From assembly GCA_963711565.1 (NCBI GenBank), contig CAVQEQ010000001.1, positions 1,248,001-1,312,000 of the forward strand: a stretch of 64,000 nucleotides of DNA. The letters are read 5' to 3'. Under the pieces are notes generated by a model that saw only the letters and a list, made by a program, of their open reading frames with translations, searched no databases and had not been told where the DNA came from. Of the stretch, positions 1-19,740 are shown one piece after another (the first letter of the stretch is position 1; each line of letters begins with the position of its first letter). The DNA is from an uncultured delta proteobacterium. Its GTDB lineage: Bacteria > Desulfobacterota > Binatia > Binatales > Binataceae. The translations under genes were made by a program, and so were the position numbers.

Positions 1-625
1 TCAGTACGTCGCCGCGATGCAGGATGCCGGTAGCCGGGCGCTGCTCCAGCGCCGGCCGCGAATAGAATACCATCTGCGTGCCGCGCATCGTAAACTCGTA
101 GTTGTGTTCTCTCGCGATCCGATGTAGGAACCCAAGGTCCGATTCCTGATTCTGCCGAAGGGCCATGAAACTCACGTCTGGGTTGACGGCCTCACCGCTG
201 ACCGAGAATCCGTGCGCGGTCGCGATGGTCCGCGCCGCTTGAAGGAGCGTTTGACCATCGTAAGCTGTGGACTTCGGGGTGCGTATCGCGGGCGTGATAT
301 ATGCCGCGATGCATCGCAGGTGCACTGCATCGGGCGCGCCCTTAAGCTCGACTTCATCGACCTGAAAAGATGGGCACGGCGCCAATCTCTCATTACGGTA
401 GCCCATCGAGACATCAACCAGATCGCCGCGCTGCGGAAACCACGGCCCCTGCCATCGCTTATCGCGATCCTCAAGCTCGATTTCCAAGTCAGGCGCCGCG
501 CCGCCGGCGTGCGACGTATAGATGATCGAGAGCACCATCTTTTCGATCGCGCCGGTAATCCCTACGCCTCGATAGCTGACTGTCCAGGCGGGCGCGCGGA
601 CCGCGTATGTAGTGACGCCTGCCAT
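1..625 (-). CDS. Phage late control D / baseplate hub-like protein (partial, runs off left edge)
   Basis: Not in the ORF track. Hand translation from ATG at 625 (TGATG overlap with the tape measure stop) gives MAGVTTYAVRAPAWTVSYRGVGITGAIEKMVLSIIYTSHAGGAAPDLEIELEDRDKRWQGPWFPQRGDLVDVSMGY...FQVDEVELKGAPD...QNQESDLGFLHRIAREHNY, a typical gpD pattern (Q..ESD..FL.R.A). Confidence 0.8.
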   Translation of the reverse strand, partial: MAGVTTYAVRAPAWTVSYRGVGITGAIEKMVLSIIYTSHAGGAAPDLEIELEDRDKRWQGPWFPQRGDLVDVSMGYRNERLAPCPSFQVDEVELKGAPDAVHLRCIAAYITPAIRTPKSTAYDGQTLLQAARTIATAHGFSVSGEAVNPDVSFMALRQNQESDLGFLHRIAREHNYEFTMRGTQMVFYSRPALEQRPATGILHRGDVL

Positions 626-2604
626 CATTCAAGATCGGTTCGACTCTTTTCAGCGAGTCGCCGCTCTACCGCTTTCACAAGTTCATAGCGATGCTTTTCA
701 AACGCCGCCACAACCATTTTCTCAAGCGCCGAAGTATCCGATCCGACTGGAGCATTGATCGTAATCGGGGCGTTGATGATGATTCCGCCGCTAGCGCCAG
801 GCACGCCCGCGGCCATCGCGCCGCCCGCGCCCGCCGCGACGATAGTCGTGCTCGCGATCGCGGCGGCCGCGGCCGTCCGCCGTATCGCGGCGATCACCGG
901 CGAAGGCCGGATATGCTCAGCAACCGTTTCCGCAATTGTGATGTGCTCGCCGAGATGGCTCAGCGGGCCGACTTTGGGCGGCGAATGCCCCTCGAAGTAG
1001 CCCAGGATTCCGCTGCCGATTTTCTCGCACGCGGCCTTGATCGAATCCCAATGCTTATAAATCTCGACGCCGATTAGTCCGAACGGCCCCGCGATTCCCA
1101 TCAGCACCGCTTCGCCAACGGTTTTGGCCCAGCCCATCGTCCAGTTGCCGACGCTGGTGAAGATACTCATCACGCCCGACCACAGACCGGAAAAGAAAGA
1201 CTTGATTCCCGACCAATGCTCGTAAATTTCGTAGCCGGCGACCGCGAGTGCAGCCGCGCCGACAACAACCAATCCCATCGGGCTGATCATCGCCCCCAAA
1301 ATCGTTGGGACGGCCTTCAAAATCGTCGGAACATAGCTCAGCGCCTTCATCGCGTTGCCGATACCGATGGTCGCCATGCCGAACGTCGAGAGCGCGGACG
1401 CTGCGCCGCTGAGGCCCACCCCGGCAACCGATAAACCGATAACCAGACCCTTGGTGGCCCACGAATATTTGTCGCTCGCCGCGGTCGCGCCCTGGATCAA
1501 AGTGGTCAGCTCTCCAAATTTGGTCGAAAACCACGGCAGCGCCGGCGACGCCATCGAGTCGTAGAGGTTGTCGAGATTCTGATGCATCTTATCGAGCTGA
1601 TCGGCCGCGTCGCCCGTTGCCGTCGTGAAACCAATGCCCAGCGCGCCAGCCGCACTCGCGCCTCTGCGTGCGGCTGCGGTAACCTTGTCCAGGCTGTCCA
1701 GATATTTGATCAGTCCGCCCGGATCGCCGATGCCCATCTCCTTCAGCGCTTCGATCTTCTCCATCGAGGGCATGGCCGCGAGGTTTTCGCGTAGCTGTGT
1801 CAGTCCGCCGATAATTCCTTTTTGCCAATCGACGCCGCTTTTACCGCTGTCAACCAGATCCTTAATCATCGAGGCGAACCTGATCGCGCCCCGTCCGCCG
1901 CCGCCGAACTGCTGGCTGGCTTCGCCGGCCAGTGCGAGCAACTCCGAAAATGAAGTATGGGTTTCCGCAGCCGTACCGCCCAACTGCCCTACCGCCTGGG
2001 CCAATTGCTGTGTGCTTTCTTTTCCAACGTTGAACTGCGTCGTCATTTTGAAAAATTGATCGCCCGCAGTCTGTGCATCGACGCCGAAATTGGTAGACGC
2101 AGCACCAAACAAGTTCGCCGCCGCCGCACCATCGACGCCGAACCTGGTGAGCATCGCCGCCGAGTCCTCAGCGGCCATGGCTTTGTTCGTATCCTGGAAG
2201 ATCGCGCGCATCCGCGTGAAGCCGGAGACCCACTCCTCGGCCGTGGCGCCCGCATGCGTACCTGAAAAAGCGACGGCATGTTCCTTCAGCTTCGCGAGTT
2301 CTCCACCGGCGAGGCCCGTCATCGCGGCCGTAGTCGCGAGCGATTTCTGCATCGCAAATGCGGGCTCGCTGATCGCGTCGCTCAGCTCGTGCAGATGGTC
2401 CGCGCCGTCCTTCATCAGAGCCGCGTCGAGCGAGATCCGCTCGCCGAACCTGGTCAGACCCTCCCCTGCCGCATCGATCTTGCCGGCAAACTCCTGAACT
2501 TTATCTCCGAGGTTCAGGAATCCGCCGCCGAACGAGCTGAGCTTGTCGCTCAGCTGATCGATCGCCTTGAACTCGACGCCATAGGTGATCATTTTGTCGG
2601 CCAT
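625..2604 (-). CDS. Phage tail tape measure protein
   Basis: 659 aa and Ala/Gly-rich. N-terminal F.AID..S motif, W-spaced repeats (IYEHWSGIKSFFSGLWSGV, IYKHWDSIK), and the HSPPKVGPLS motif typical of P2/Mu-type TMPs. Confidence 0.88.
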   Translation of the reverse strand: MADKMITYGVEFKAIDQLSDKLSSFGGGFLNLGDKVQEFAGKIDAAGEGLTRFGERISLDAALMKDGADHLHELSDAISEPAFAMQKSLATTAAMTGLAGGELAKLKEHAVAFSGTHAGATAEEWVSGFTRMRAIFQDTNKAMAAEDSAAMLTRFGVDGAAAANLFGAASTNFGVDAQTAGDQFFKMTTQFNVGKESTQQLAQAVGQLGGTAAETHTSFSELLALAGEASQQFGGGGRGAIRFASMIKDLVDSGKSGVDWQKGIIGGLTQLRENLAAMPSMEKIEALKEMGIGDPGGLIKYLDSLDKVTAAARRGASAAGALGIGFTTATGDAADQLDKMHQNLDNLYDSMASPALPWFSTKFGELTTLIQGATAASDKYSWATKGLVIGLSVAGVGLSGAASALSTFGMATIGIGNAMKALSYVPTILKAVPTILGAMISPMGLVVVGAAALAVAGYEIYEHWSGIKSFFSGLWSGVMSIFTSVGNWTMGWAKTVGEAVLMGIAGPFGLIGVEIYKHWDSIKAACEKIGSGILGYFEGHSPPKVGPLSHLGEHITIAETVAEHIRPSPVIAAIRRTAAAAAIASTTIVAAGAGGAMAAGVPGASGGIIINAPITINAPVGSDTSALEKMVVAAFEKHRYELVKAVERRLAEKSRTDLE

Positions 2605-3233: not shown

Positions 3234-3252
3234 GAGTCGAATGTGAGGAAAT

Positions 3253-3339
3253 GCTGGCGGCGCGGGCGACTTTGGAGGAGTAGTCCAAAGTCCATCCGCC
3301 GCCCAAGGCGATGCAGTGACACCTCCGCATGCCGCCAGC
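3253..3339 (-). ncRNA. Candidate structured RNA module 2 (four-way junction)
   Basis: Same closing stem and internal hairpins as 3144-3233. Stem CGGGA/TCCCG is replaced by TTGGA/TCCAA with pairing kept. Confidence 0.5.
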
Positions 3340-3567
3340 GAGTCTAAAAACAGATGCGCGCGCCGCCGGCGAACCGGAACGTCGGACGGCGCGCTCAGCG
3401 CGCCGCGACCTTTCGACGCGCGCAAGATTGGGATGCCGGCGGGAAGATGAGATGCGCAGCGCCGACGGCATTGCACCATGCGCCACGTATCGCGAGGCGG
3501 AGAACCTACTACTAGAACCCCCCCCGCATCCCGCCGGCAAGCAAATCATTTTTTTGCGGCGTTCCGA

Positions 3568-3975: not shown

Positions 3976-4014
3976 TTTATTGCCGCCGATTTTTCTGGCG
4001 GAGTTTTCAGACCG

Positions 4015-4500
4015 TCAAACTTTGCGACCCTCGCGATCGTCGCGTTCCGGGTAGGGCGGCACCATTCGTTCCAGGAGCTGCATGACATAGAGCGCTCCGT
4101 CGAGAAGCCGATCGTACATCTCGCCGTCGTCGCTATTAGTGTCGCAGTCCTTCAGTGCGGAGATGGCTGCGTCTCGAAGTTCGAGATCCGAAGCGCTTTC
4201 CGCAAACTTGGGATCGGCGTCATAGGCGGCCTTGTGCGCGCGATCAACTTCCTGATGCGATAGAGATAGTCCCGGTTTACCCACACTCGCCCGCGCGGTC
4301 TCCCCGCCAGACTGTCGAGCGAGCGCCGCGGCAAATGCGCGACGGCCTATGCCGAAAGACCGCGCTACGGCCAATTCATCTCGCGTCAAGCCGTGGGTAT
4401 TTTCTGATCGCGAGAGGCGCGCGACCCTCGTCGCTAGCTGTTCGGGCGGGATTCCGAAGGTCGCCGCGATCTTCTTTTGGTCCGCGGTAAGAGTACTCAT
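4015..4500 (-). CDS. Hypothetical protein with two Mu scaffold-like (LT..E..VA..FGI) motifs
   Basis: AGGAG RBS before ATG at 4500. Motifs LTADQKKIAATFGIPPEQL and LTRDELAVARSFGIGRRAF. Confidence 0.65.
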   Translation of the reverse strand: MSTLTADQKKIAATFGIPPEQLATRVARLSRSENTHGLTRDELAVARSFGIGRRAFAAALARQSGGETARASVGKPGLSLSHQEVDRAHKAAYDADPKFAESASDLELRDAAISALKDCDTNSDDGEMYDRLLDGALYVMQLLERMVPPYPERDDREGRKV

Positions 4501-4628
4501 CAAATTCTCCTGATTGCGGCTGCCCCGAGCCGTCCTCGTTTCATGGGCTGTCAGCGGACTGAGGACTCCGTCGTAACAGGTCTCGATCTCATCTGGCCGA
4601 AATTCCCTCATCTCTCAAAATTCCGCGC

Positions 4629-5249
4629 TTACCACTGGCGGTGATGCGTGCCCTCGCCGCGCTCGCGCCGAGCGTCGTTATCCCGTTCGTGCTGAATCGC
4701 CGCGGCTTCCCGTTTTTCGAGCCCTTCGATGTGCGCGTTGGTCAGGATGCCGGGAACCTCTCTGCGCGTGACTTCGCGGTCGCCCAGCTTCACGGAAGAG
4801 ACCCGAATAGCGCTGATCCGATCTCCATCTCGGAAAAACTTCTTGAGCCCGTCGATCTCCTCTGCGGTCCAACTCGCCTGCTGAAATACAGGATGAGTTC
4901 GATACAACTCTTCCTGGAAGCTGGGCGCCTTTTCCGGGATGCTCAGTCGCCGGCAAGCCTCTTCCATCTCGAAGACCTTGCTCCGAAGGGTGTTTAGATC
5001 GGCACCGTTTCGGATCAGATCGTCGATCATCTTTGAGTGCGAAGCCATGTTGCCCACGGCGGCGCGTTCCCGCTCAGAAGTCGGAAACTTCAGCGCCGCG
5101 ATGCGCGCCCGCGCCGCTTTGACGATCTCGATCGGATCGCGCGCTTGTCGGAGCCGCTCAGTTGCTTCATCGCAATCCGTCGCCATCGCCTTGACCAGAG
5201 TTCCGTTCTCCGGAGCCTGAGCCTCGTTGTTCTCTTCCGCCGCCTTCAT
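4629..5249 (-). CDS. Hypothetical phage protein
   Basis: 206-aa ORF, ATGA overlap with the upstream GemA stop, GAGG RBS. Confidence 0.65.
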   Translation of the reverse strand: MKAAEENNEAQAPENGTLVKAMATDCDEATERLRQARDPIEIVKAARARIAALKFPTSERERAAVGNMASHSKMIDDLIRNGADLNTLRSKVFEMEEACRRLSIPEKAPSFQEELYRTHPVFQQASWTAEEIDGLKKFFRDGDRISAIRVSSVKLGDREVTRREVPGILTNAHIEGLEKREAAAIQHERDNDARRERGEGTHHRQW

Positions 5250-6115
5250 AGGTCACCTCTCGTCGAATTTTTATTCCGCGGGCCGCGAACCGCGCCCGGA
5301 GTTTCTGTCTCGTCCGCGTCGGCCTTCAACGCCGAGCGCATGCCTTCTGCGATCGTCCGATCCACTTCCGCGACGCGCCCGACGAGCCAAAACAGCTCGC
5401 CCCGAACCTTCTTAAAGTCCCATTTCAAAAGAGCTTGCCGGGCTCTCTCCCCAAACTCGCGCACCAGGTCCGCGACTTGCGCCGCGATCTGCGCGTCGGC
5501 GAAATTCTGCGCGTCGAGAAGCACCAGGACGTTGCGGATTCCCTCGATCGGAGTCCCGGCTTCACCGACCAGGCGCATCGCGTCGAATACGCCGGCCTTC
5601 ACGATCGCGCTCGCGGGGATCGCGACCGCGGCCGGCTGGTTCTCCGCGATCGGGTGTTTGATCAGCCACTTTTTGCGCCAGCCCTTGAGCGCTTCGATCA
5701 CCTTGTTCGCATCAGTCGCGTCGAGCCACTGAAGCCTCTCGACGCCGGTGATTTTCCGCACGAATTTTTGCAGCCATCGTCCGGTCGAATTGGCCTTGAC
5801 CGCGCCGACGCGCTCCAGCTCATATGCACAAACGAGCAATTTCTTGAGATGCTGCGCGCCCGGAGATTTCGGATCGATGCGAATCCAATCGTCCTCGCGA
5901 GCGCGCGGCGGTGCCGAGTTAAATCCCTTGCGCGCAAATTCGTCGAGCAGCGCGCGTCGCTCCGCCTCTGTCATGTTCGCCGACGAATCGGTGCGCCCTT
6001 TCGTGATACGCTCGATCATCATGCGATACGCTTCATCGTCCAGGCAGAGCTGTTTTTTCGCGAGATGAATCTTCGCGAGTTCAGCCTGTCGGATTTTCTG
6101 CGGCGGCGTTCTCAT
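5246..6115 (-). CDS. gemA: GemA-like (Mu gp16/DUF1018) regulatory protein with C-terminal extension
   Basis: LAKIHLAKKQLCLDDEAYRMMIERITKGRTDSSANMT...FVRKITGVERLQWL...ANKVIEALKGW is the gp16/GemA signature. Start coupled to the AlpA-like stop. Confidence 0.85.
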   Translation of the reverse strand: MRTPPQKIRQAELAKIHLAKKQLCLDDEAYRMMIERITKGRTDSSANMTEAERRALLDEFARKGFNSAPPRAREDDWIRIDPKSPGAQHLKKLLVCAYELERVGAVKANSTGRWLQKFVRKITGVERLQWLDATDANKVIEALKGWRKKWLIKHPIAENQPAAVAIPASAIVKAGVFDAMRLVGEAGTPIEGIRNVLVLLDAQNFADAQIAAQVADLVREFGERARQALLKWDFKKVRGELFWLVGRVAEVDRTIAEGMRSALKADADETETPGAVRGPRNKNSTRGDL

Positions 6116-6363
6116 CACGGTTCTGAATCCTTGACCTGCTTGATCGTCGCTCCCGTCACTTCCCGCTCCGCCAGCCAAGCCAACACGCGCGCGCGCGAAT
6201 ATCGGACCACTGCTTTCGAGACCTGGAAGTAAGGCGGCCCCGATCCCTCGCGCCGCATACGCTTGAATGTTTCGTCCGCAACCCCTATGAGCCGCGCGCA
6301 CTCTTCCTGGGAAATGATCTCATCATTGAGCGATAGCGCCGGTCTGTTTGTTTCGTCCGACAT
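6115..6363 (-). CDS. AlpA/excisionase-like HTH DNA-binding protein
   Basis: IISQEECARLIGVADETFKRMRREGSGPPYFQVSKAVVRYSRARVLAWL is a HTH_17/AlpA pattern. Confidence 0.8.
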   Translation of the reverse strand: MSDETNRPALSLNDEIISQEECARLIGVADETFKRMRREGSGPPYFQVSKAVVRYSRARVLAWLAEREVTGATIKQVKDSEP

Positions 6364-6891
6364 TTAGCTCTTTGCCGTTTTCCGCGTTCGCGCGGCTACC
6401 CTCGGGCATGTCGTTTCCAGCAGCGCCAATGCGATCGATGCGCGTAGAATCAATTCCCCGCAAAGCTCCGATGATGGGACTTCGTCCTCGCCCACATGCC
6501 ACGTTAAGGCAGCACAACCCTCGATATATCGCGATCCGAGAGCGGTGGTCGGTGCGTTCCCAATCTCATAGAGGTTACGACTACAGTTTTCGTGAACTGA
6601 GAAGACCATTTCTTCTAAGAGCCGGCGCAGCTTGCTAAAAGCGTCGGTGGTATTCTGAGATGCCTTTCCGATCGAAATCGTGATCTGATCGCGCGCTGGG
6701 CACCATTGGTCTATGTGCCGAAAATGCCTCGCCGATCTGAGCACCGGCCATGCCGTCGCCCAAACGTCATCGTATTTGGCGCGAGCGACGATGAACGCTT
6801 GGAGCGCGGACCGCACTTTGCCGATAGTCGCCGGATCTAAAATGCTTTCCGGTTTGAAGAGCGGGGTTGTTTTTTGCTCGGCTTTTTTCAC
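6364..6891 (-). CDS. Hypothetical phage protein
   Basis: Likely GTG start at 6891 after GAGGAGG, overlapping the upstream stop. Abuts the AlpA-like start. Confidence 0.6.
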   Translation of the reverse strand: MKKAEQKTTPLFKPESILDPATIGKVRSALQAFIVARAKYDDVWATAWPVLRSARHFRHIDQWCPARDQITISIGKASQNTTDAFSKLRRLLEEMVFSVHENCSRNLYEIGNAPTTALGSRYIEGCAALTWHVGEDEVPSSELCGELILRASIALALLETTCPRVAARTRKTAKS

Positions 6892-7319
6892 GGCTGTCCT
6901 CCTCTCTGACGTTCCACGAACGCGCCCAATCGAGCGAGCCGTTTGTCGCATGAGACAATTTGTGCCGCGCACTCCGCGCGCAGATCGCGCAGCGCGGAGA
7001 TTTCTAAATTCGGGTCAAGCGTGAGCCCCTTCCTGCCAACCCTCGGAGCAAAAGGTCCGGTGTTGCGGATCAGCGCATAGACGCTGCCATCGCAGCCGCG
7101 CGCATGCTCGGCAACTCTCAGATAACCCGCGCGCGTCAAGTCCTGGAGGAAGCGCTCAGCCGCCTTGCGCCCCGCGATCTCGGCGACTTGAATCAGATCG
7201 CGAATGTGGAACTGCCGAAGGATGCGCATCGCGCGCCACATTCGTTCGCGCGCGGCGCTCGGCGCGCCGGCGAGATTCACGCCGGCGCCGCGTCCACGTT
7301 TATTTTTGACGGTTTCCAT
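6888..7319 (-). CDS. Winged-helix protein conserved downstream of the ATPase in B3/BcepMu-like transposable phages
   Basis: RERMWRAMRILRQF...YLQ-like...LTRAGYL...YALIRNTGPFAP motif; coupled to the ATPase stop. Confidence 0.7.
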   Translation of the reverse strand: METVKNKRGRGAGVNLAGAPSAARERMWRAMRILRQFHIRDLIQVAEIAGRKAAERFLQDLTRAGYLRVAEHARGCDGSVYALIRNTGPFAPRVGRKGLTLDPNLEISALRDLRAECAAQIVSCDKRLARLGAFVERQRGGQP

Positions 7320-8059
7320 CAGGCCGCCGCCGCCGCGAGATCAGCGCGCCGGTTGACTGGCGGCGGCGTCGAATCGTCCATCGGATAATCCGCCAGCGCG
7401 ATCTGCTTGAGCGCCCGCCTGCGGCAGAACGCTTCCACCGCCGCCAGCTCCTTGACGAACAGTCCGGCCGATCCGCGCGTCTTTTTGTGAAGCGCCTCGA
7501 TCAGGTCATCGCCGAGCCGCACTTCGGCCAGCTCGGTCGCGAGCAGCCTGCTATCGTCGAGCGTGGAACTCTTAAATTCTACTTCGCGGAGTATCCGCCG
7601 CTCGATTTGCTCACGCCGCTTTATTTTTCCGCGAAATTCCGCGGTACCGCCAATGAGGACAAGCGGAATCGCCGTCATGTCGTGAATGGCGCGCAGAGTC
7701 TCGACGAGATCCTTTTTCTCTACGATCCCGTCGGCTTCATCGACATAAATCGGCCGCGGCAGATCCGTCAGGCCGCGCACGATTGTCTCGTACATCGGCC
7801 GCAGTTCCCGCGATGGCTTTTCGCCCATCTCGCGGCAAATGTCGCTGAGCATCCAGCGCGGATTCCACAAATGAAGTGCCGTCAGAAAGATCGCGCCCTG
7901 CTTCAGAGCCTGATGCGCAGCGATGCAGGTCTTTCCTCTTCCGCTTCCGCTGCTATGAATCAGGATGATGCCCGGTAGCGATGGATCGCGCGCGATCGCC
8001 GCGGCGATGGCACCGATTCCCGCCTTGTAATTACTCGTCGCACAGATTTTTACCCGCAT
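7319..8059 (-). CDS. MuB-like AAA+ transposition ATPase
   Basis: Walker A (SGSGRGKT), Walker B (IYVDEAD), ETLRAIHD..IPLVLIG; directly after the transposase. Confidence 0.88.
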   Translation of the reverse strand: MRVKICATSNYKAGIGAIAAAIARDPSLPGIILIHSSGSGRGKTCIAAHQALKQGAIFLTALHLWNPRWMLSDICREMGEKPSRELRPMYETIVRGLTDLPRPIYVDEADGIVEKKDLVETLRAIHDMTAIPLVLIGGTAEFRGKIKRREQIERRILREVEFKSSTLDDSRLLATELAEVRLGDDLIEALHKKTRGSAGLFVKELAAVEAFCRRRALKQIALADYPMDDSTPPPVNRRADLAAAAA

Positions 8060-10113
8060 TTTTTGACCTCCTCGGTCCGTTCGTTACTTGAAGCCGGGAC
8101 GCGCTCAGCCCACCGCATCGCGCGAAAGTCGCTCGTCATTTCGTAGCCCAAAGCCCAACTGTCGGGCGTATTTTTGTAATGCGCGAGAAAGCGCTGTTCA
8201 CGCAAAGTCAACGCCCGGTGCTCGCGCCGAATCGCGATCCAGAGCTGATCACATTCGTCTTCGCTCAACTGCAATTCTCGGATTTCACGCCGCCGCTCTA
8301 TTTCCTGTAGCGCGATATTTCCATCGCGCAGTACCTCGTCGCTATGCGGTTCCGGTTCGGCCGGCGCGTCGAGCGCTTGCAGCGCCGCCGCCGCCGCCGC
8401 GATACCCGGTGAGCGATGCGGCAATGCAGTGATTTCAGTTCCGGGCGCGGGAAGCTTAACGGCGTCGCGCGCAGCGCACGATTCGATAATGTCGCGGTAT
8501 GTGGTTTCAGGCCGGTGCTTTCGCTTGAGCGCGCGCAGCTCGTCCATGCCCTCGCGCATCTTCCTGTTCTGATCCTGCTTGGCCGCTATCGCCATCACCT
8601 GCCGGTCGAGGCCGGCGGACTCAGGATTGATCGCGACGCAGATAAACTTCGTGCCGTCGCCGCTGAAGATGATCAGCTTGCCCTGGTCGCGCGTGCGCAC
8701 GTACTGAACGCCCTGTTCGATATACGCTTCGAGTGCGTTGCCCTCGTCCCAATAGAATGCGTTATCGACACGGATACCCTTCTTGCCGACCGTCGCGGTG
8801 CCATCTTCGCCCAGCAGCACGTCGAGCAGCCGCTCGTCGGCCACGCGCCGAACCTGTCCGCGCCGATCCGCCTCGGCAAAAACCTCGTTGGGAGTCCGCC
8901 CGCCGAGCCCCGAATGCTTTTTGTTGCCGTAAACATGCTCCAGCCACTTGTCGAGCAGGTCTTGCAGCTCGGGCGCGGTCAGCTCGATTCGATAGAGCCG
9001 CCGCATATTGCGCCGCGCGCCGCGGCCGGGCGCATAGCCGGCGCGCTCGCGGATTTTCGACGCCTCTTTCACATCGTGGCCGATGTAGCCGGGCAGGTTG
9101 ACGAAAAAAGAGTGGAGCACCGTGCCGATTCCGCGCTCGATGTGTGGTTTTCGCCATCCCGAATAAGCTGGCGTCGCCGGCCACGCGATCCCGAGCCGCG
9201 CGATTCCGCGCTGCGTGCGCGCCGAGACGAACCCGGCGCCGTTGTCGTGCGAAATCTCGTCGGGAACGCCGCGCAGCGAAATCCCTTTGATCACCATCTC
9301 CGCAACCGCGTTAGAAGACTCAACCGGCGCCAGATGGGCGGTAATCACGCGCGAGCAAACGTCGATCTGCCCCATCACGTGCAGCCTGCCGCCCGGCGTC
9401 TCGACCGTGCCGAGCACATAAGAGTCGGCCGGCGTGCCGTCTATCTCCCAAAGCTGATTTACCCGCGTGATATTCGCGTCGGCATCGCCGATCGCGAGCA
9501 TGTGGCGGTTTTTCCAGCCGGCAGGGTCTTCGATCCGCACATACAGCGAATGGTTCTGCTGCTTCCAATCGCGGATGAACTTCTGCACCGCGTCGATGCT
9601 CGGAATCCGATCGTTTGGAAACCGAGCCTCGATTCCTTCGAGCACGAATTGCGCGTTAACCTTCGGGTTGTGCGCGATCTGGGCGATCACGAACTCACGC
9701 ATCAAGGAATTGCGCGCGATGATCGAGTCGCCGCGCCGCTTGCCATAGCCCGGCACCAGGCCGGCAATGCCGGACTTCTCGAATCGGCGCCAAGCCTTTT
9801 GCAGCGTCGGCCATTCGATGCTCTGCCAGAGTTCGCGCGCGTTGGCACTCACTTCGATCTGACCGTGATTAAAGCGCTCGCAGAAATCCTTGCCCGCAGC
9901 GTTCAGCGCCTTGCACGATCGCTTTCTGAACGCACGGAACGCCGCGACGATCTCCGCCATCGCCAGCGCGCGCGCGGCAATCTTCGTCGGAATACCATCG
10001 AGCGGATCGAGAGGAGCGAGCGGCGCGGCAACAACCGGCAGCGTGACAGCGCGCGCGTCGTCCGACAGCGCCGGCCGTTCCACGAGCTGCACGCTGCGCG
10101 CCGCCTCACTCAT
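8050..10113 (-). CDS. MuA-like DDE transposase
   Basis: 687 aa. Catalytic motifs LWEIDGTPAD, HDNGAGF and KPHIERGIG, plus YGNKKHSGLGGRTP and the Mu-transposase C-terminal TVGKKGIRVDNAFY. Confidence 0.92.
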   Translation of the reverse strand: MSEAARSVQLVERPALSDDARAVTLPVVAAPLAPLDPLDGIPTKIAARALAMAEIVAAFRAFRKRSCKALNAAGKDFCERFNHGQIEVSANARELWQSIEWPTLQKAWRRFEKSGIAGLVPGYGKRRGDSIIARNSLMREFVIAQIAHNPKVNAQFVLEGIEARFPNDRIPSIDAVQKFIRDWKQQNHSLYVRIEDPAGWKNRHMLAIGDADANITRVNQLWEIDGTPADSYVLGTVETPGGRLHVMGQIDVCSRVITAHLAPVESSNAVAEMVIKGISLRGVPDEISHDNGAGFVSARTQRGIARLGIAWPATPAYSGWRKPHIERGIGTVLHSFFVNLPGYIGHDVKEASKIRERAGYAPGRGARRNMRRLYRIELTAPELQDLLDKWLEHVYGNKKHSGLGGRTPNEVFAEADRRGQVRRVADERLLDVLLGEDGTATVGKKGIRVDNAFYWDEGNALEAYIEQGVQYVRTRDQGKLIIFSGDGTKFICVAINPESAGLDRQVMAIAAKQDQNRKMREGMDELRALKRKHRPETTYRDIIESCAARDAVKLPAPGTEITALPHRSPGIAAAAAALQALDAPAEPEPHSDEVLRDGNIALQEIERRREIRELQLSEDECDQLWIAIRREHRALTLREQRFLAHYKNTPDSWALGYEMTSDFRAMRWAERVPASSNERTEEVKKCG

Positions 10114-10427
10114 ACGGCCGCCTCGCGCGCCGGTTCTTTCAACACCTTCCGCGCTCGCCGTTCAGCGCGGAGCCGTTCGCGCTCGGGCCACAATTCCTCC
10201 GGCGTTCGGCCGATCGCGGCGGCGACTATGCGTTCTGCGATCGGCCAAGGCCGGTCGAAAACATGACTGAGTGTGCTCGGATGCCAGCCGCGAGATTTTG
10301 CTAGAGCTGCGAGAGAAGTGCCGCGCCGGCGAAGTTCAGCTAGAATGGCGAAGCGATCTATTCCGCTTGACGCGGAAACCGCGAGGCGCTTAGATCGCTC
10401 TGCTCGCTTTGGTCGATGCCGTTCCAT
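10110..10427 (-). CDS. ner: Ner/Nlp-family transcriptional regulator
   Basis: ILAELRRRGTSLAALAKSRGWHPSTLSHVFDRPWPIAERIVAAAIGRTPEELWPER is the Ner signature; ATGA overlap with the transposase. Confidence 0.9.
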   Translation of the reverse strand: MERHRPKRAERSKRLAVSASSGIDRFAILAELRRRGTSLAALAKSRGWHPSTLSHVFDRPWPIAERIVAAAIGRTPEELWPERERLRAERRARKVLKEPAREAAV

Positions 10428-10467
10428 TGGCAGAATATATTCGTCTGAAATCAGGAGATTGTCAACT

Positions 10468-10974
10468 ATGAAGAGTAGACAAGCTCCCTCATCGAAAGAT
10501 CGGGCCGCGCCTTCCGATCCCATGTCCGACCGAATCGAATATTGCTTTCGCGTGGCCGGCGGCGTGCGCGCGGTTTCTAAAGCCACCGATCTGGTTGAAT
10601 CCCTGCTCTACCGTTACCGGAAACCGGGCGCGTCAAGGCGAACCGACGTATTGTCGCTGATCGCCAAGGCGGCCAATGTGAGCGAGGCGTGGCTTCTAAC
10701 CGGCATCGAGACCGATCCATCGAAGAGCACTTCCGCACGGCCGAAATATCATTCCCTGGCGGATTTGCCCTATCGCATGTCGGCTGAATATGAGATGGAC
10801 GCCGCCGCCCGACGTGAGTTGATCTTTGAGCGAGAGGGCGGCGCCGAGTTCAAGGACGCAACCCTTCGAGCGCTCGAAGAAGAGCTGCACCGTCTCAAAG
10901 GAAGGATCGAGGTTTTGGAATCGCAATTGGCCGCCAGCAGACCGCGCGGCGGAAAAAAAGCTGCACGCGCGTAA
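10468..10974 (+). CDS. Phage repressor (Cro/CI-type HTH)
   Basis: Divergent from ner, AGGAG RBS, HTH ending IAKAANVSEAWLLTG, C-terminal coiled coil. Start could be 10521. Confidence 0.8.
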   Translation: MKSRQAPSSKDRAAPSDPMSDRIEYCFRVAGGVRAVSKATDLVESLLYRYRKPGASRRTDVLSLIAKAANVSEAWLLTGIETDPSKSTSARPKYHSLADLPYRMSAEYEMDAAARRELIFEREGGAEFKDATLRALEEELHRLKGRIEVLESQLAASRPRGGKKAARA

Positions 10975-10989
10975 AAGAGGGTTCACGAA

Positions 10990-11328
10990 ATGGGGGCAAA
11001 AGCGTTCGCTCGACTATTGGTACTGATCGGCTTTGTCTCAATGGGCTGCTCGCACGGCAGCTTGCCGCACGATCGCCTCAACGGAACCTGGACCAGCGAC
11101 ATTATGACCATCACGATCGATTTCCCCGCCCACAAATATTCGGGCGTTGCGATGGGCGAGCCGTTTTCGCACTACCTGGACCTGGTGAGCGAAAACGCCA
11201 ACGTCGTGGTCTTCAAAGAGAGCGACGCAACCATCGTCTGCCAGATTCAGGACGACGGCAGCATTATGATCACCAAGCAGGGCTCCGAAGGCGGAATCCC
11301 TATGATCCTGCACCGCGCCAAAGACTAA
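10990..11328 (+). CDS. Lipoprotein (moron-like)
   Basis: Lipobox-like VSMGC after a hydrophobic stretch; LNGTW lipocalin-like start; GAGG RBS. Confidence 0.7.
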   Translation: MGAKAFARLLVLIGFVSMGCSHGSLPHDRLNGTWTSDIMTITIDFPAHKYSGVAMGEPFSHYLDLVSENANVVVFKESDATIVCQIQDDGSIMITKQGSEGGIPMILHRAKD

Positions 11329-11336
11329 CCGGAAAA

Positions 11337-11750
11337 ATCAAAGTTCCCTTCCGAAACTTTGATCATTGTTCGCCTAGGGAACAATGATCCCGAACCCCGC
11401 CAGAATACCGGCCCGGCATTTTGATTTTCGCGATCACAGTCGTCCTCGACGACTATGATTTTAGCCGCGCCAAGGCGCGCCTAGACCAGGCGTTCGCGTA
11501 TGTCGCGGACGACGGCATGCGAAATCAAAGTCGTGCTCGACGATTTTGATCTTTCCGAGATCAAACTCGCGGACGACGAGTTTGATCGGCCGGCCCCTTT
11601 TCAAGATCGCTAGAGACGATCTTGAAATCACCCTCGCGCTCGACGAGGGTGATTTCCTCCGGTTACGTCGCAGGCTCATGTCGTAGGCGACGACATGATA
11701 AGTGTCGTGGCCCCGCGACACTTCCATCATGTTCCCGAAGGGAACATGAG
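11337..11750. repeat. Array of about 10 imperfect palindromes, consensus ATCA-N3-TCG-N7-CGA-N3'-TGAT
   Basis: 27-bp units start at 11337, 11362, 11433, 11524, 11560, 11600 and 11627. 25-bp variants start at 11675 and 11726, and related hairpins at 11494 and 11700. Confidence 0.9.
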
Positions 11751-11906
11751 AAGTCATAAGCCCCACTAATTTATCGAGCCGCGCAGACGATCCGGTTTTC
11801 AGGGTTGTGAGCGCTCATTGGCCCTTCGCGACGAGGCGCGGGCGCTTTTCGGTCAAAAGTGCCCTAACTATCCGATTTTGCTAGCGAATCATATCAAATG
11901 GAAAAA

Positions 11907-12178
11907 ACCGCTCTTAGTTGGATCTAATTCCTAACTAGGGATGCGTTAGCGCGACACGGCGCGTCGTGGCGCTATCAGTTTCCAGACTGGCCCGATTAGA
12001 CGAATCCTACTCCGAACTTAGCCCCTGCCCCACGGCTTTGCGATGAGCGCTCGCGTCAGAAAACCCCGTCCAGACGCGGGTTTCGATGCGTCCGTCGTCC
12101 CATGATGTCCCCCCCAGTCCCACGAAATCCCGCGAATTGCCTCGGAAGAGTTTAGATCCAACCATGAGCGGTGTCACA
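11907..12178. repeat. Element terminus with inverted 21-bp putative transposase-binding sites
   Basis: ACCGCTCTTAGTTGGATCTAA (+, 11907-11927) matches ACCGCTCATGGTTGGATCTAA (-, 12172-12152) at 19/21. The outer site starts 6 bp inside a TG...CA-type end. Confidence 0.75.
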
Positions 12179-12510
12179 CCACCGTTACCAGGCGATTTAC
12201 TTTGGATTCTCTCCTTCGAGAACAGAGCCGGTGCTCTTCGCATCACTGTCCGCCAAAAACGTCTTCGCCAGGACATCGCCTTCAAGCGAGGGAAATCCAT
12301 ACGAGGCTTCTTGAGTCCGCCCGACCTGGGATTCGGTAATCGCCGTGCAGCTTGAAGCGGCCCGTCTGTGGCGAATTCCAATTCATGCGGCAATTGGGGT
12401 CTGAAACAATCCGTTTGCAGTGTTGCCGCCAGCGATATGAGTGAAGGTTTGCGATTGGAGGAGGAACTGCGCCGTTGCGTTGAGCCGGCGTGGCTCCGGA
12501 GCTGCTGCGT

Positions 12511-15300
12511 TTACCGCTCTTTCAGTTCGGCCAAGAAGACGGCCGACCTGCCAACCTCCAGGAATTCCTTAGCATCGAGGGTATCGAAAAGCTGGATAGT
12601 CTTGGCCACGAGGCCGGTCCATCCAGTCTGATGGCTTGCGCCGAGCCCGGCGCCGTTGTCGCCGTGGAAGTACTCGTAGAACAGAATATAGTCGCGCCAA
12701 TGCGGGTCGGACTGAAATTTCTCGCTGCCCCCGTACACAGGACGACGGCCATCTTTGTCACGCAGAAAGGTAGCGCCAAGCCTACGGGTTATCTCGTGGC
12801 TCACTTGAAAAAGATTCATTAGTTGGCCGGAACCAGTAGGGCATTCGATCTTAAAGTTGTCGCCGTAATAGAGATAGAACTGCAATAGTGCCCGAATAAC
12901 TATGATATTCACCGGAAACCACACTGGGCCTCGCCAGTTTGAGTTACCGCCAAACATGCCGGTGTTCGACTCCGCCGGCAAGTAGTCTACGCGATACTCC
13001 CGGTCACCGACGTTCAGGATATAGGGATGATGCTCGTGAAACTTCGATAGAGAACGAATGCCGGTAGGACCCAGAAATTCGTTCTCATCGAGCACTCTAG
13101 AAAGGATTCGGCGCAAACGCTCGGGACCAACCAAAGCTATGATGCCGCGCTCGTAGATTCCGAAATGCCCGGGCCCGGTAGGATGAATGTAATTCCATAG
13201 CTCGGGCATCCGCTGGCGCCGTCTATCCAAGAGAGTCATCGCCGACGGCATCCGTTCGCGTTGCCATCGCTCGACGACAGTGGTTGCGCAGAGCGGCAGC
13301 AGCCCTACCATCGATCGCACCTTGAGCCGTTTGGCGCTGCCGTCCGGGAGTCGCAAGAGATCGTAGTAGAAGCCGTCTTCCTCGTCCCACATCCCGTCGT
13401 CGCCGGGACGGTTCATAGCTGTAGCGATGTAAAGGAAGTGCTCGAGGAACTTGACCACCATATCTTCGGAGGTGTGGTCGTAGGCAAGGAGTTCTATCGC
13501 CAGTTCTGCCATGTTTTGGCTGTACAGCGCCATCCATGCGGTGCCGTCGGCCTGCTCGAGGCTGCCTCCAGTGGGCAAAGGTGCGCTCCGATCGAAAATC
13601 CCGATATTGTCGAGACCCAGGAAACCACCTTCGAAAACATTCTTGCCGAACCGGTCCTTGCGATTGATCCACCAAGTGAAATTCAAGAGGAGCTTTTCAA
13701 AACACCACTTGAGGAAATCGATATCAGTTTCGGCCCCCAGGGCCTGCTCCGTGCGATGCAGGAATAGAGTCGCCCAGGCATGGACCGGCGGGTTAACATC
13801 GCTGAAGTTCCACTCGTAGGCGGGAATCTGGCCGTTGGGGTGCATATATAACCCCTTGAGCATGAGACGTATCTGCTGACGGGCGAACTCCGGGTCCACG
13901 GTCGAAAGCGCGACGGTATGAAAGGCGAGGTCCCAAGCCGCATACCATGGATACTCCCATTTGTCGGGCATCGAGATGACGTCGTCGTTGAGCATGTGGT
14001 ACCACTCCTGGTTGCGGGAGTGCCGGATTCCGTGTTTCAACGGATTGGCGCGATGTTCGTCCAACCACTTATCCGCGTCCAGGTAGTAGAACTGCTTAGT
14101 CCACAGCATTCCAGCGAGCGCTTGACGCATCACATTGGCCGCGTCCGGGGACGCCGCAGCCGGGATCACCGACCGGTAGAACTCGTCGGCCTCGTCCAGG
14201 CGGGCTGCAAAGATCTCATCAAAATTCTTCCCGAACGAAAAAGCATCTTTCCCGCCGCCCTTTGACTGTTCCCCGAGCGCTTGACCAGTCAAGCGTAATC
14301 GCGCCGTTGCCGATTGCCCAGAGTTTATCGTGAATCGGTAGCGCGCCGCGGCTTTGGTCCCGCGCAGGTCCGGATTCACCGTTGGTTTCCCATTCGTCAC
14401 GAAGTCGTTGATGCCGTCTTTCACATAGGGGCAGGCGTTGGGATATTCGGGAAAGAGGCGCTGGTTGTTGGTCTCGTTCTCGGTAAAGAGAAGCGGCACC
14501 TCACCTTCGCAATACAGATGGTACTTTCCGAGTTCGCGATGCTCAGCGGCTATGGCTGTGCTACCAGACGGAGCTTCGATCCACTTGAGAGTCGGTCGCT
14601 CGGCGGGTCTAGAAATCCATGATGACCAGTCATTGCGGAACCAGAGAGTCGGCAACAAATACAGTGGCGCCGGTTCGGGTCCCCGGTTCCACACCGTTAT
14701 CCTTATTAGAATGTCGTCGGGGGCGGCCTTGGCATATTCTACAAAAATGTCGAAATAACGGTCGCCGTCAAAGATTCCCGTGTCCAGAAGCTCATACTCT
14801 GGGTCGTTGCGTGTGCGGCGCGCATTGACTTTTATCAGGTCGCCGTAAGGATAGGCCGCTTGGGGATACTTGTAGAGGTACTTCATGTACGAGTGTGTCG
14901 GCGTACTGTCAAGGTAGAAGTAGTACTCTTTCACGTCCTCGCCATGGTTTCCCTCGCTGTTCGTGAGTCCGAAGAGCCGCTCCTTTAAGATAGGGTCCTT
15001 GCCGTTCCATAGAGCTAGTGCAAAGCACAGCGCTTGCTTGTCGTCGGAGAGACCTGCCAGGCCGTCCTCGCCCCATCGGTAGGCACGCGAGCGGGCCTGA
15101 TCATGGCTGAAGTAGTTCCAAGCGTCGCCCGTGTCGCTATAGTCTTCGCGTACGGTGCCCCACTGGCGCTCGCTAAGGTAAGGACCCCACCGCTTCCACG
15201 GCGTTTGGTGAATGCGCTCCTGGTAGAGACGTTCTCGCTCGGCGGGCATGTTGGTCTCGCTCCTCAGGATCCGGTTTTGCTTAGGTGTCGCGTGCGCCAA
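12511..15300 (-). CDS. MGH1-like / GH63-like glucosidase
   Basis: WKRWGPYLSERQWGTVREDYS, SMPDKWEYPWYAAWDLAFH and EYFHGDNGAGLGASHQTGWTGLVA motifs. Start may be 15249. Confidence 0.88.
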   Translation of the reverse strand: MAHATPKQNRILRSETNMPAERERLYQERIHQTPWKRWGPYLSERQWGTVREDYSDTGDAWNYFSHDQARSRAYRWGEDGLAGLSDDKQALCFALALWNGKDPILKERLFGLTNSEGNHGEDVKEYYFYLDSTPTHSYMKYLYKYPQAAYPYGDLIKVNARRTRNDPEYELLDTGIFDGDRYFDIFVEYAKAAPDDILIRITVWNRGPEPAPLYLLPTLWFRNDWSSWISRPAERPTLKWIEAPSGSTAIAAEHRELGKYHLYCEGEVPLLFTENETNNQRLFPEYPNACPYVKDGINDFVTNGKPTVNPDLRGTKAAARYRFTINSGQSATARLRLTGQALGEQSKGGGKDAFSFGKNFDEIFAARLDEADEFYRSVIPAAASPDAANVMRQALAGMLWTKQFYYLDADKWLDEHRANPLKHGIRHSRNQEWYHMLNDDVISMPDKWEYPWYAAWDLAFHTVALSTVDPEFARQQIRLMLKGLYMHPNGQIPAYEWNFSDVNPPVHAWATLFLHRTEQALGAETDIDFLKWCFEKLLLNFTWWINRKDRFGKNVFEGGFLGLDNIGIFDRSAPLPTGGSLEQADGTAWMALYSQNMAELAIELLAYDHTSEDMVVKFLEHFLYIATAMNRPGDDGMWDEEDGFYYDLLRLPDGSAKRLKVRSMVGLLPLCATTVVERWQRERMPSAMTLLDRRRQRMPELWNYIHPTGPGHFGIYERGIIALVGPERLRRILSRVLDENEFLGPTGIRSLSKFHEHHPYILNVGDREYRVDYLPAESNTGMFGGNSNWRGPVWFPVNIIVIRALLQFYLYYGDNFKIECPTGSGQLMNLFQVSHEITRRLGATFLRDKDGRRPVYGGSEKFQSDPHWRDYILFYEYFHGDNGAGLGASHQTGWTGLVAKTIQLFDTLDAKEFLEVGRSAVFLAELKER

Positions 15301-15323
15301 CTCTATGGAGACGAACTAGGTCG

Positions 15324-18300
15324 TCAATTCGAGGGCACAGCTGGCCCCTGACGCGGAGCGCCGGGTGCTACTGCTGGCGCTGATAGCGGTCCGAAGATGT
15401 GGCGGACGGAGACAAAGAACACCGGCACGAAGGGGATCGCAAGAAGAGTCGAAGCGAGCATTCCGCCGAAGACTACCGTACCTAATGACTGCTGGCTCGC
15501 GGCGCCGGCGCCGGTGGCGGTCAACAGCGGAACCACGCCGAGAATGAACGCGATGGACGTCATTAGTATCGGCCGAAAGCGTCGGCGGGTTGCTTCCACG
15601 GCGGCTTCCATGGTTCCCATCCCTTGCGCCGCAAGATCACGAGCAAACTCGACAATAAGGATCGCGTTCTTCGCTGCCAGCGCGATCATAAGGACCAGTC
15701 CTATCTGCGTGTACAGATCCACAGGAAACTTCCGGATAACCAACGCTACGAGGATACCTATGAGAGCCGTCGGTACTACCAGGATAACTGCGATAGGATC
15801 GGTCCAGCTCTCGTACTGCGCCGCGAGGACCAGATAGACGAGCGTGATCGACAGTGCAAAGATAAAGTAAGCCTGACTCCCGGTTTGTTCTTCCTGATAG
15901 GCAAGTCCCGTCCATTCGTAACTCATACCTGCAGGCAGCGTTTCATCGGCGAAGTTCGCCATCATGCTTAGTGCCTGTCCGGAGCTGTACGAGGGCATCG
16001 GAATTCCGGTCAGGATAGCAGCGGGATAAAGGTTGTAGCGCGTGACCAGCTCGGAGCCCAGCATCCTGCGGACCGAAAGCAGCGCACCCAGGGGCACCAT
16101 CTGGCCTTCCTTGTTCATCACGTCGAGATTTTGTATGTCGGCCAGTGCGCGACGAGAGTCGGCCTCGGCCTGAACGCGAACCTGAAAGGCCTGGTTGAAT
16201 TTGTTGAACTGATTTACGTAGGTCGAGCCGAGATAGGTTTGCAGAGTCTCGGAAACATCGTTGACCGGAACACCAAGCGACTCGGCCATCGTTCGATCGA
16301 TGTTGAGATAGATCTGCGGACTGTTATCGCTGAAGGTGGTAAAGCCGAGGCGCAGAAAGCCATCCACGCTCTGCGCCCGATCGAGCAACACGTGAGTGGC
16401 CTTCTGCAATTCGCGGAGTCCATTGCTGGCGCGATCCTCGACTACCATCTGAAATCCGAACGCCGTTCCCAGGCCGGGAATCGGAGACGGCGGCATCACA
16501 TCGAATGAAGCTGTGCGAATAGACTGAACCTTTTCCTGAATATGTTTAATTATTCCGGCCTGGGTCAGACCTGCTGGACGCTTGCTCCAGTCATCATAGA
16601 TGCAGAACACCGTGACGTAGTTCGAAACGTTGGCGGAGTCCAGCGCCGAGAATCCACCCATCGTAACCCAGCCCTTGATGCCGGGACTCTCTTTCAATAT
16701 CGCGTTGATTCGGTCGGAGACCTCTCTTACCCGGGGCTGAGCGGATCCCTCGGGTAGTTCAGCCGAAATGATGCAGTATCCCTGGTCTTCGAGCGGCAGC
16801 AAGGAAGTCGGGTAGATCGAGAAAGCAAATCCAACCAGGAACAATACGGCGAAGAACCCTGCTACCATCGTGAAAGGGCGAGCGACCATCCAGCTGACAA
16901 GTCCTATGTAGCGATCCTCGACGGCCGCAAACCCTCGATTGAACTCACTGTAAAACCAGTTGGGTTTGTAGTCCTTAGGCCTGGGTCTGAGATAGAGCGC
17001 ACACTGTGTGGGCTTGAGCGTGAGTGCGTTGGCAGCGCTGATAAGTGCGGTCGATGCGATCACCAGCGCGAACTGACGAAACATCTGTCCGGTGATACCG
17101 GGCAGGAAAGAAGCCGGCAAGAAGACTGAAGTAAGAACCAGGGTGACGCCAAGAACAGGGCCAGTGAGCTCGCCCATGGCTTTGATGGCCGAGTCCTTGG
17201 GACTGAGTCCTTCTTCTATGTAGTGCGTACAGTTCTCGACAATGACGATAGCGTCATCCACTACGATTCCGATCGCAAGGATCAAGGCGAACAGAGTCAT
17301 CAAGTTGACCGAAAAACCGAGCAATGCCATCGCCGCAAAAGCGCCTATTATCGTGACTGGTACGGTCGTAGCGGGAACCAGCATCGCGCGGAAGTTCTGA
17401 AGAAAAATTACGATGACGATCAGAACGAGGATGCCCGCCTCGCCCAGCGTCACATACACCGCGTGAATTGCCTGGCCAATGAAGACGGTGGTGTCATAGA
17501 GCGGAGTGTATTTGAGTCCTTCCGGGAAGGTGCTGCTCATCTTCGCCATCAGTGCGCGCACGGCGGACGCGACCTGCAGCGAATTTGCGCCGGGCAGCGC
17601 ATAGATCGCGATATGGCCTGCCTTTTTGCCGCTCAGATTGGAGAACAGCGTGAACTGCTGCTGGCTCATCTCGATCTTTGCAACGTCTTTGAGCCGCACT
17701 ATCGAGGCAGTCTCGCTCGGTTGAGCGCTGTTAACGGTTTGTCCTGCCAGGGTCGGCGCAAGGCGACTTTTGATGATGATGTTTTCGAACTCTTTCGGAT
17801 CCGACAGGCGTCCCTGGGTGTTAACCGTGAACTGGAAGACCTGGTTCGATGGAACCGGCGGCCCACCTATCTGACCCGAGGCGACCTGGTTGTTTTGAGA
17901 CTGAATCGAGTTCTGTACATCGAGCACGGTCAGCCCGAAGGTTTTGAGCTTGTTGGGATCGAGCCAGATGCGCATGCTATAGGCACCGGCGCCTATGACC
18001 TTGACCTGACCTACCCCTGGGATGCGAGCGATAGGATTAACCAGGTTGATGGTCGCATAGTTGCTGAGGAAAGTTTCATCGAAGCGGTTGTCATCCGAGT
18101 AAAGACTCTCCATCAGCAGGATGTTGGTGGTGACTTCCTTGACGTTCACTCCCTGGTCCTTCACGGGCGCAGGCAGTTCCGAGAGCGATCCGTTGACCGC
18201 GTTCTGGACCAGCGCGAGCGAGGTGTCGAGATCGGTTCCGATCGTGAAGGAGACGGTCAGCGTATAACTTCCGTCGCTGCCGCTGGTGGATTGCATGTAG

Positions 18301-18527
18301 ATCGCGTTCTTTACGCCGTTGACCGACTGCTCGATCGGTACGCCCACCGTCTTGGCGACAGTTTCAGCGCTCGAGCCCGGATAGTTCGTGGTCACCTGGA
18401 TCGTCGGCGGCACGATTGGCGGATACTGTGAGACGGGCAAGGAGTAGAGACAAACAAACCCGAGCAGTACGATCACTACCGCGAAGACGTTCGCGAGGAC
18501 CGGCCGCTCGATAAAGAACTTCGACAT
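15324..18527 (-). CDS. RND efflux permease (HAE1/AcrB family)
   Basis: MSKFFIERPVLANV, GIVVDDAIVIVEN, KNAILIVEFA, RFRPILMTS. Confidence 0.95.
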   Translation of the reverse strand: MSKFFIERPVLANVFAVVIVLLGFVCLYSLPVSQYPPIVPPTIQVTTNYPGSSAETVAKTVGVPIEQSVNGVKNAIYMQSTSGSDGSYTLTVSFTIGTDLDTSLALVQNAVNGSLSELPAPVKDQGVNVKEVTTNILLMESLYSDDNRFDETFLSNYATINLVNPIARIPGVGQVKVIGAGAYSMRIWLDPNKLKTFGLTVLDVQNSIQSQNNQVASGQIGGPPVPSNQVFQFTVNTQGRLSDPKEFENIIIKSRLAPTLAGQTVNSAQPSETASIVRLKDVAKIEMSQQQFTLFSNLSGKKAGHIAIYALPGANSLQVASAVRALMAKMSSTFPEGLKYTPLYDTTVFIGQAIHAVYVTLGEAGILVLIVIVIFLQNFRAMLVPATTVPVTIIGAFAAMALLGFSVNLMTLFALILAIGIVVDDAIVIVENCTHYIEEGLSPKDSAIKAMGELTGPVLGVTLVLTSVFLPASFLPGITGQMFRQFALVIASTALISAANALTLKPTQCALYLRPRPKDYKPNWFYSEFNRGFAAVEDRYIGLVSWMVARPFTMVAGFFAVLFLVGFAFSIYPTSLLPLEDQGYCIISAELPEGSAQPRVREVSDRINAILKESPGIKGWVTMGGFSALDSANVSNYVTVFCIYDDWSKRPAGLTQAGIIKHIQEKVQSIRTASFDVMPPSPIPGLGTAFGFQMVVEDRASNGLRELQKATHVLLDRAQSVDGFLRLGFTTFSDNSPQIYLNIDRTMAESLGVPVNDVSETLQTYLGSTYVNQFNKFNQAFQVRVQAEADSRRALADIQNLDVMNKEGQMVPLGALLSVRRMLGSELVTRYNLYPAAILTGIPMPSYSSGQALSMMANFADETLPAGMSYEWTGLAYQEEQTGSQAYFIFALSITLVYLVLAAQYESWTDPIAVILVVPTALIGILVALVIRKFPVDLYTQIGLVLMIALAAKNAILIVEFARDLAAQGMGTMEAAVEATRRRFRPILMTSIAFILGVVPLLTATGAGAASQQSLGTVVFGGMLASTLLAIPFVPVFFVSVRHIFGPLSAPAVAPGAPRQGPAVPSN

Positions 18528-18536
18528 TGGCTAGCC

Positions 18537-19733: not shown

Positions 19734-19740
19734 CGGGTTC

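Follow-up and report, generated by a model that had tools for sequence, protein, structure and literature searches.

The palindrome array considered here lies in a Mu-like mini-phage of 13.3 kb, which takes up positions 1-12178 of the window (the whole 64,000-nucleotide stretch of DNA analysed) together with the 1121 bp before it, and is bounded by 28-bp inverted repeats (Table 1). The genome that carries it (G000) is 4.84 Mb and 95% complete. Mu-like phages have a repressor divergent from Ner, transposase A, B and GemA, and TG...CA ends; the target duplication of Mu is 5 bp. The element resembles Mu in its gene set, with a DDE transposase, an AAA B protein, Ner, a repressor and GemA, in its inverted TG...CA ends and target duplication, and in having several insertion sites, but it is 13.3 kb long and duplicates 7 bp. 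The protein scan covered 13 element proteins, two ORFs before the window start lying outside it; among these 13 there was no match to a capsid, portal or terminase, a tape measure protein alone being recognised, and at least five had no family of any kind. Soil runs contain empty-site contigs and show a second site of insertion, so the element is mobile; a related transposase is present in 20 of 165 genomes of the host family. Similar compact elements are possibly an undescribed class of transposable phage satellites.

Table 1. Genes, element ends and palindromic units in the window; for units, pairs are counted between the two arms.
Feature	Position	Strand	Remarks
Tape measure protein gene	625..2604	-	
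GemA-family gene	5246..6301	-	
AAA transposition protein B	7319..8059	-	
Mu-type DDE transposase	8050..10113	-	Directly after Ner; no methylase-fusion gene between
Ner-like HTH gene	10110..10586	-	Pfam HTH_35, E 1.5e-19; true start likely inside ORF
Repressor gene	10468..10974	+	PHROGs transcriptional repressor, E 1e-6; start codon inferred
112-aa small protein	10990..11328	+	Lipoprotein-like by eye; no family match
Palindrome array, about 12 sites (10 clear, 2 decayed)	11337..11751	.	Non-coding, 3' of repressor operon
27-bp unit, GTTC-type core, 9/10 pairs	11337..11363	.	1/20 arm bases off gene L480 site
27-bp unit, GTTC-type core, 10/10 pairs	11362..11388	.	Closest sampled gene site 4/20 off
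Decayed unit, about 6/10 pairs, by eye	11399..11425	.	Minus-strand peptide remnant
27-bp unit, GTCG core, 9/10 pairs	11433..11459	.	
Decayed unit, 7/10 pairs	11496..11522	.	Perfect in G001 and G002
27-bp unit, GTCG core, 9/10 pairs	11524..11550	.	2/20 off gene L457 site
27-bp unit, CTCG core (Y-D helix class), 10/10 pairs	11560..11586	.	1/20 off gene L525 site
27-bp unit, ATCG core (small-residue class), 10/10 pairs	11600..11626	.	Closest sampled gene site 3/20 off
27-bp unit, CTCG core, 10/10 pairs	11627..11653	.	Closest sampled gene site 5/20 off
25-bp unit	11675..11699	.	9+9 arm bases equal site in G052 methylase-fusion gene
Unit with 8-nt centre	11700..11723	.	Centre 7 nt in G030 and one short-read contig
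25-bp unit, GTTC-type core	11726..11750	.	Also the array's last unit in G001, G002 and G030
Internal copy of terminal motif	11908..11927	+	Likely transposase site
Left terminal inverted repeat	12151..12178	-	Partner 1121 bp before window start
7-bp target duplication	12179..12185	+	Identical 7 bases at other end; empty-site contigs in runs X1 and X4

The array begins 9 bp after the operon of the repressor and small gene, about 430 bp before the left end of the element. In the near-twin of the element in genome G030 (locus L023), the repressor and Ner are wholly different from those in the window, whereas the small gene, array and element end hardly differ; in soil contigs this small gene is joined to a repressor side of the G030 type, which points to immunity-region swapping. 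Both elements lie near a tRNA-Ser gene (L023:16946-17037 in the twin; 100 bp before the element's other end in its own genome), inserted at different bases and in opposite orientation, a possible target preference. Outside the element, 9.3 kb of the window (12226-21560, with glycoside hydrolase and RND efflux genes) is duplicated on contig C2 at 98.8%, and the C2 copy adjoins an IS21-like element that also interrupts a second Mu-like element.

An earlier note, made from the letters of this DNA, had described seven 27-bp palindromes and two 25-bp variants. All were found in place, four of the seven pairing at 10 of 10 arm positions and three at 9 of 10, and the two shorter variants containing perfect 8+7+8 cores (11676-11698 and 11727-11749); the two decayed units and the one with an 8-nt centre are additions to its list. 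Under a fixed definition (10+7+10), 10 units lie within 450 bp, compared with at most two in 1000 dinucleotide shuffles, and the frame pattern has six matches in the window where 0.14 are expected (0 of 100 shuffles). The array is real, neither a tandem repeat nor a CRISPR, and tied to the Mu-like element, as the earlier note had it. Short-read contigs from two runs cross the array without gaps and with 0-1 differences; the four runs available belong to a single study, with the source sample possibly among them.

The units cover several inner cores (GTCG, CTCG, ATCG and GTTC), and the centres differ among nearly all of them. In shufflon-like banks of tyrosine-recombinase sites, partner sites have the same 6-8 bp spacer and a recombinase is linked to them; the array, with differing centres and no recombinase match in the element, does not fit this kind. 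REP and BIME sequences are clustered extragenic palindromes with many near-identical genome copies, whereas the window array is not dispersed in the genome and its arms differ between units. Genome-wide there are 380 perfect palindromes with a 7-nt centre, 34 of them with the core, and only two clusters: the window array and one on contig C2, 3' of the repressor in a second, distant Mu-like element. With each cluster in a Mu-like element, a genome-wide REP unrelated to the element is not what is found; when the definition is relaxed, C4 contributes three matches in one GC-rich hairpin repeat, which is unrelated. Two other ideas about the centres were dropped: by eye they miss the conserved U needed for mimicry of an anticodon loop, and as would-be copies of the element's 7-bp target duplication they do not match it (one C2 centre does, which is taken as chance). 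Near 11461-11487, a second kind of imperfect palindrome lies between units; it turns up in several arrays, twice in L024 and also in L029.

The exact pattern of one unit matched four viral contigs, and in three of these the match is in frame inside ParB_N or Dam genes, directly 3' of a GGDRKS motif. Among loci with GGDRKS codons (80 of 98 fetched, 69 distinct), 53 of the 69 have at least 8 of 10-11 bases paired close downstream, compared with 90 of 472 control stretches. Since these palindromes occur in all three reading frames, the DNA palindrome, not the peptide, is the conserved part. The GGDRKS genes (L129-L208) include 26-, 27- and 28-bp palindrome classes, each with different domain types.

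The pattern of the shorter units matched 44 distinct viral loci, 12 of which we read as one family, with the order a helical N-domain, a linker encoded by the palindrome and a predicted recognition helix (T-L-x-D-L-G-I-S-x-x-Q-S-S-x-W-Q), followed by a C-terminal partner: Dam, MT-A70, an N6/N4 methylase or DUF4326. Bro-N genes, considered as a source of the units, were rejected: the genome has none, and by eye one of the 44 viral loci is Bro-N-like and one KilA-N-like. The N-module matches only phrog_33995 (function unassigned) and forms 17,031 clusters at 50% identity. Pfam searches of 99 members gave nothing above noise, ParB_N included, PDB sequence searches gave no match, and the 30 of 30 matches in the ESM Atlas share no common Pfam family. 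Its predicted structures are confident and helical (pLDDT 87-88); fold searches with them returned generic helical matches (best Z 5.1) without confirming a helix-turn-helix, the VirB core, of the ParB family, coming in at rank 20 (Z 3.9, rmsd 3.7, 58 aligned). The family gene is present in 7 of 165 genomes of the host family, so that partners are rare in assembled hosts, and was not found in G000, G001, G002 or G030; a six-frame profile search of G000 gave none either. The one ParB_N gene of the host genome is away from the element.

For a further set of genes, the helix codons were the sole criterion. It began with 141 loci, made up of 61 of 61 from viruses and 80 of at least 119 from metagenomes; three were too short, and 126 distinct ones were kept. 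In this set the best palindrome 10-55 nt upstream of the helix codons is odd-centred in 117 of 126 genes (343 of 725 controls) and has at least 7 of 8 pairs in 79 (58 of 725 controls). Where at least 6 of 8 bases pair (109 genes), the inner bases are mostly GTCG-N7-CGAC; outer positions 5-9 use all four bases and pair at 0.81-0.97, where about 0.3 is expected. The gene sites share the form of the array units: 10+7+10, a T-Y-S inner core, and variable, complementary outer arms.

The inner bases follow two variable residues of the helix, whose codons sit outside the palindrome. In 103 genes, position 4 goes with the first residue, K or R with G (163 of 166 half-sites), Y or H with C (22 of 24) and A, P or N with A (10 of 16), and positions 1-2 with the second, D corresponding to CG in 86 of 94 half-sites. 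On an N-domain tree (82 rows, 77 columns; quick and poorly resolved) the nine genes of the Y/H class require nine changes, of which strong branches force three or more; scattered in this way, they are not one clade. In eight held-out genes, found by profile in bacterial genomes, 16 of 16 half-sites fit the code, seven of the genes being of the common G class; three further genes were unscorable, among them one of the Y class (L590) in which no site contains the core, and nine other genes were excluded from this test as having been found by the site itself. Near-identical N-domains (L424, L466) carry different pairs of site and helix. We infer that the predicted recognition helix reads duplex DNA directly. 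The outer arms, at positions 6-10, pair at 0.64-0.97, yet the three helix residues tested have little predictive value for them (z at most 3.2). These arms may be read by the linker peptide or elsewhere in the protein, or the pairing may matter in itself, or template switching may keep the arms perfect.

How close are the array units to these gene sites? The seven 27-bp units sum to 19 mismatches to their nearest gene sites, where shuffled arms reached a minimum of 27 in 300 trials; three differ from sampled sites at 1, 1 and 2 of their 20 arm bases, and the other four at 3-5. In the closest gene site seen with the centre included, 2 of 7 centre bases differ from the array unit. The G052 gene matching the unit at 11675 is a methylase fusion, frameshifted, between Ner and the transposase of a related element. 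For the best-conserved unit (11600..11626), whose arms are identical in G001, G002 and G030, a scan for a cognate gene found none in 61 distinct loci (102 matches, 80 fetched, mostly chance coding matches in a helicase). One frame of the unit at 11524..11550 resembles the linker peptide of the source genes, the G002 array retains vestiges of GGDRKSK and of the helix region, and the G151 array and a single site in G054 retain linker remnants. By this sequence resemblance, the array units are derived from the coding sequence of other phages' genes and are non-coding here; the conserved coding repeat that the earlier note had named as its own refutation is half true, for the ancestry of the units and not for their present state.

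Arrays are present at nine of 24 element loci, with 2-10 units each and in two places, after the repressor or after GemA. These nine have no family gene; three loci have the gene and no array, 12 have neither and none has both, in a small tally with several loci interrupted by contig ends. The array is missing from 15 of the 24, close relatives included. Paired-unit scans gave, among the matches listed, seven in viruses and 76 in genomes, and 12 of these 83 have at least two truly palindromic units: three arrays like that of the window, one prophage pair (L122), and for the rest apparent tandem repeats. A transposase search of the viral contigs gave no match. In non-coding DNA by terminase-like genes of unrelated prophages there are two units (L122:6000-6082) and one (L042:1500-1528).

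Unit order and arms are kept between elements (G000/G030, G001 and G002): in matched units, arms are identical at 184 of 192 positions and centres at 40 of 84, with units paired across elements by arm sequence and order, so that arm identity is partly built in. The small gene directly 5' of the array in G001, G002 and G030, whose 112-aa product is a candidate exclusion protein, is 80-91% conserved compared with 42-79% for the transposase, and recent module exchange could thus mimic selection. In the G030 array (L023:16125-16470, against window 11337-11700) there are three deletions, each with one end inside a 7-nt centre or at its border, and one of them yields a hybrid unit, a real hot spot or an assembly error. 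Where a cargo gene of the G158 element ends (L040:4200-5310), the family gene occurs a second time, broken and with another site, perhaps an array in the making.

On balance, the array is probably functional: a putative bank of foreign docking sites, of several specificities, recruiting or soaking up the proteins of other phages. For each protein of the family, the binding site would be the palindrome of its own gene, where two helix residues would read four inner bases per half-site. By analogy with M.SsoII and BisD, each family gene likely bears the docking site of its own product, either for autoregulation or to keep the methylase on self DNA, and a helper-dependent mini-phage that lost the gene, or never had it, would profit from a panel of sites. 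Such a mini-phage may have collected sites of several specificity classes from these genes and retained the palindromes while their coding context decayed. The array would then bind a family protein expressed by a helper or rival phage; such proteins are mostly adenine methylase fusions in the host family. The likeliest benefit would be that a foreign methylase is drawn onto the element's own DNA; titration of the protein off its own genome would be the other side of the same capture event, and the evidence fits recruitment and titration alike. The partners of the array are likely not the element's repressor, Ner or transposase, but another protein family, absent from the genome. The "sponge" or bank of 10+7+10 sites of the earlier note comes close to this.

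A neutral origin is the first alternative to be weighed, and a rather unlikely one: the palindromes would be hot spots of recombination or slippage in these genes, and scraps centred on them would gather without function at the variable end of the element. Array scraps do retain coding flanks, G158 has its broken second gene copy with another site, the three G030 deletions, with the window as reference, have ends that fall within centres or at their edges, and L424 and L466 have different site and helix pairs behind near-identical N-domains. Mere accumulation fits less well with units that are mostly still perfect though their coding flanks are gone, with unit order and arms conserved between elements while centres differ, and with arrays of several specificity classes having arisen at two places in the element (after the repressor and after GemA).

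It is doubtful that the sites act as extruded hairpins (cruciform, ssDNA or RNA), with a protein reading the loop-proximal core, outer arms that need only to pair, and the array as a hairpin sponge. The outer arms in the genes vary freely with complementarity kept, the array region folds far better than shuffles on the two strands (z -9.2 and -8.9), and template-strand mismatches in gene sites favour G-T by 31 to 12, where base make-up gives about 1.2 to 1. On the coding strand these mismatches are A-C 31 against G-T 12, opposite to mRNA wobble, and those of the array, G-T 6 against A-C 3 on the repressor strand, favour no clear strand. The 7-nt centre is moreover rigid, a hairpin would be destabilised by the asymmetry conserved in some cores (in 26 genes, for example, C stands opposite T at position 2), no promoter-like site was found within the array region, and none of the Rfam 15 covariance models fits the array (one chance match, E 0.79). 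Selection on RNA hairpin shape alone, one form of the inference in the earlier note, also conflicts with inner bases that track protein helix residues in the source genes and with matched sister units that keep their arms and change their centres; the idea still stands for the outer arms, where the helix residues give no account of the pairing.

A silent cassette store, its units donors to be swapped into a gene-bearing relative and so to alter linker and site, would account for the joint movement of site and helix between near-identical genes and for hybrid units such as the first of G030. It is very improbable: the window units have no helix codons, so a swap would uncouple the site from its reader, and the genome has no recipient gene. 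That the array serves the element in cis, to enhance transposition, to direct packaging or to bind the element's own repressor, Ner or transposase as an operator, is hardly credible. It does lie 400-800 bp from the element end and occurs in several relatives; but it is missing from 15 of 24 loci, close relatives among them, it was retained while the repressor gene was exchanged (window versus G030 type), and its units are unlike the terminal motif and accounted for by a foreign gene family.

The bank of docking sites has partial counterparts among known systems. M.SsoII-type methylases have an N-terminal regulatory domain that binds a palindrome distinct from the methylation target, with two proteins per site (PMC3978073). 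The phage family is alike in having a methylase fused to an N-terminal domain, with palindrome binding predicted; the SsoII site is 15 bp and intergenic (PMC3978073), whereas the sites here are 27 bp with a 7-bp spacer, intragenic, variable gene by gene and hoarded in a gene-less element, with no restriction partner seen. ParB-parS, KorB-OB and BisD-bisS likewise join mobile-element proteins to palindromic docking sites, some of them intragenic (PMC12409273, PMC11790492, PMC7383237): BisD loads at palindromes inside genes of its own element, bisS lying in inrR and ssb (PMC12409273), and ParB/Noc specificity is set by helix residues (PMC12409273, PMC11790492, PMC7383237). Some ParB_N genes bear the same palindrome after the same linker motif as the family, but in the best-matching family the N-domain is helical and matches nothing in Pfam, ParB_N included, and the site is in the protein's own gene, and the parS consensus is a 16-bp palindrome without spacer (PMC12409273), compared with array units of 27 bp with a 7-bp centre. 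TIGR arrays are also phage arrays of variable yet consistently palindromic units; inside each of theirs lie two spacers of 8-12 nt along with box C and box D, and a Tas gene is adjacent (PMC12045711). A stem-loop array of the TIGR kind was rejected, a 7-nt centre being too short for two such spacers, and no Tas-like (Nop-domain) match was found among the 13 element proteins, at least five of them without a family. No account of the gene family, of its intragenic sites or of such arrays was found in the open-access literature, supplements aside. The array appears to be a protein-plus-palindrome system with, possibly, a new use.

For the gene family, a large phage module without a Pfam family, the analysis predicts a DNA target and a code from residue to base that can be tested, both relevant to the targets and control of orphan phage methylases. 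The array brings such sites together naturally, as a panel within 450 bp, and a single plasmid could serve to put the main questions. Do family proteins bind the units? With what specificity? Are they recruited or titrated? A wider and more tentative idea is that transposable mini-phages assemble and maintain a collection, of several specificities, of the sites by which other phages address themselves, and use it to commandeer or disable the self-targeted methylases and effectors of a family with 17,000 clusters. If true, this would be a DNA-level parasite of phage self-recognition, with the two-residue code predicting which protein each unit catches. If the array is functional, it would represent a conflict between phage and satellite that is waged by means of captured binding sites, not of proteins or RNAs.
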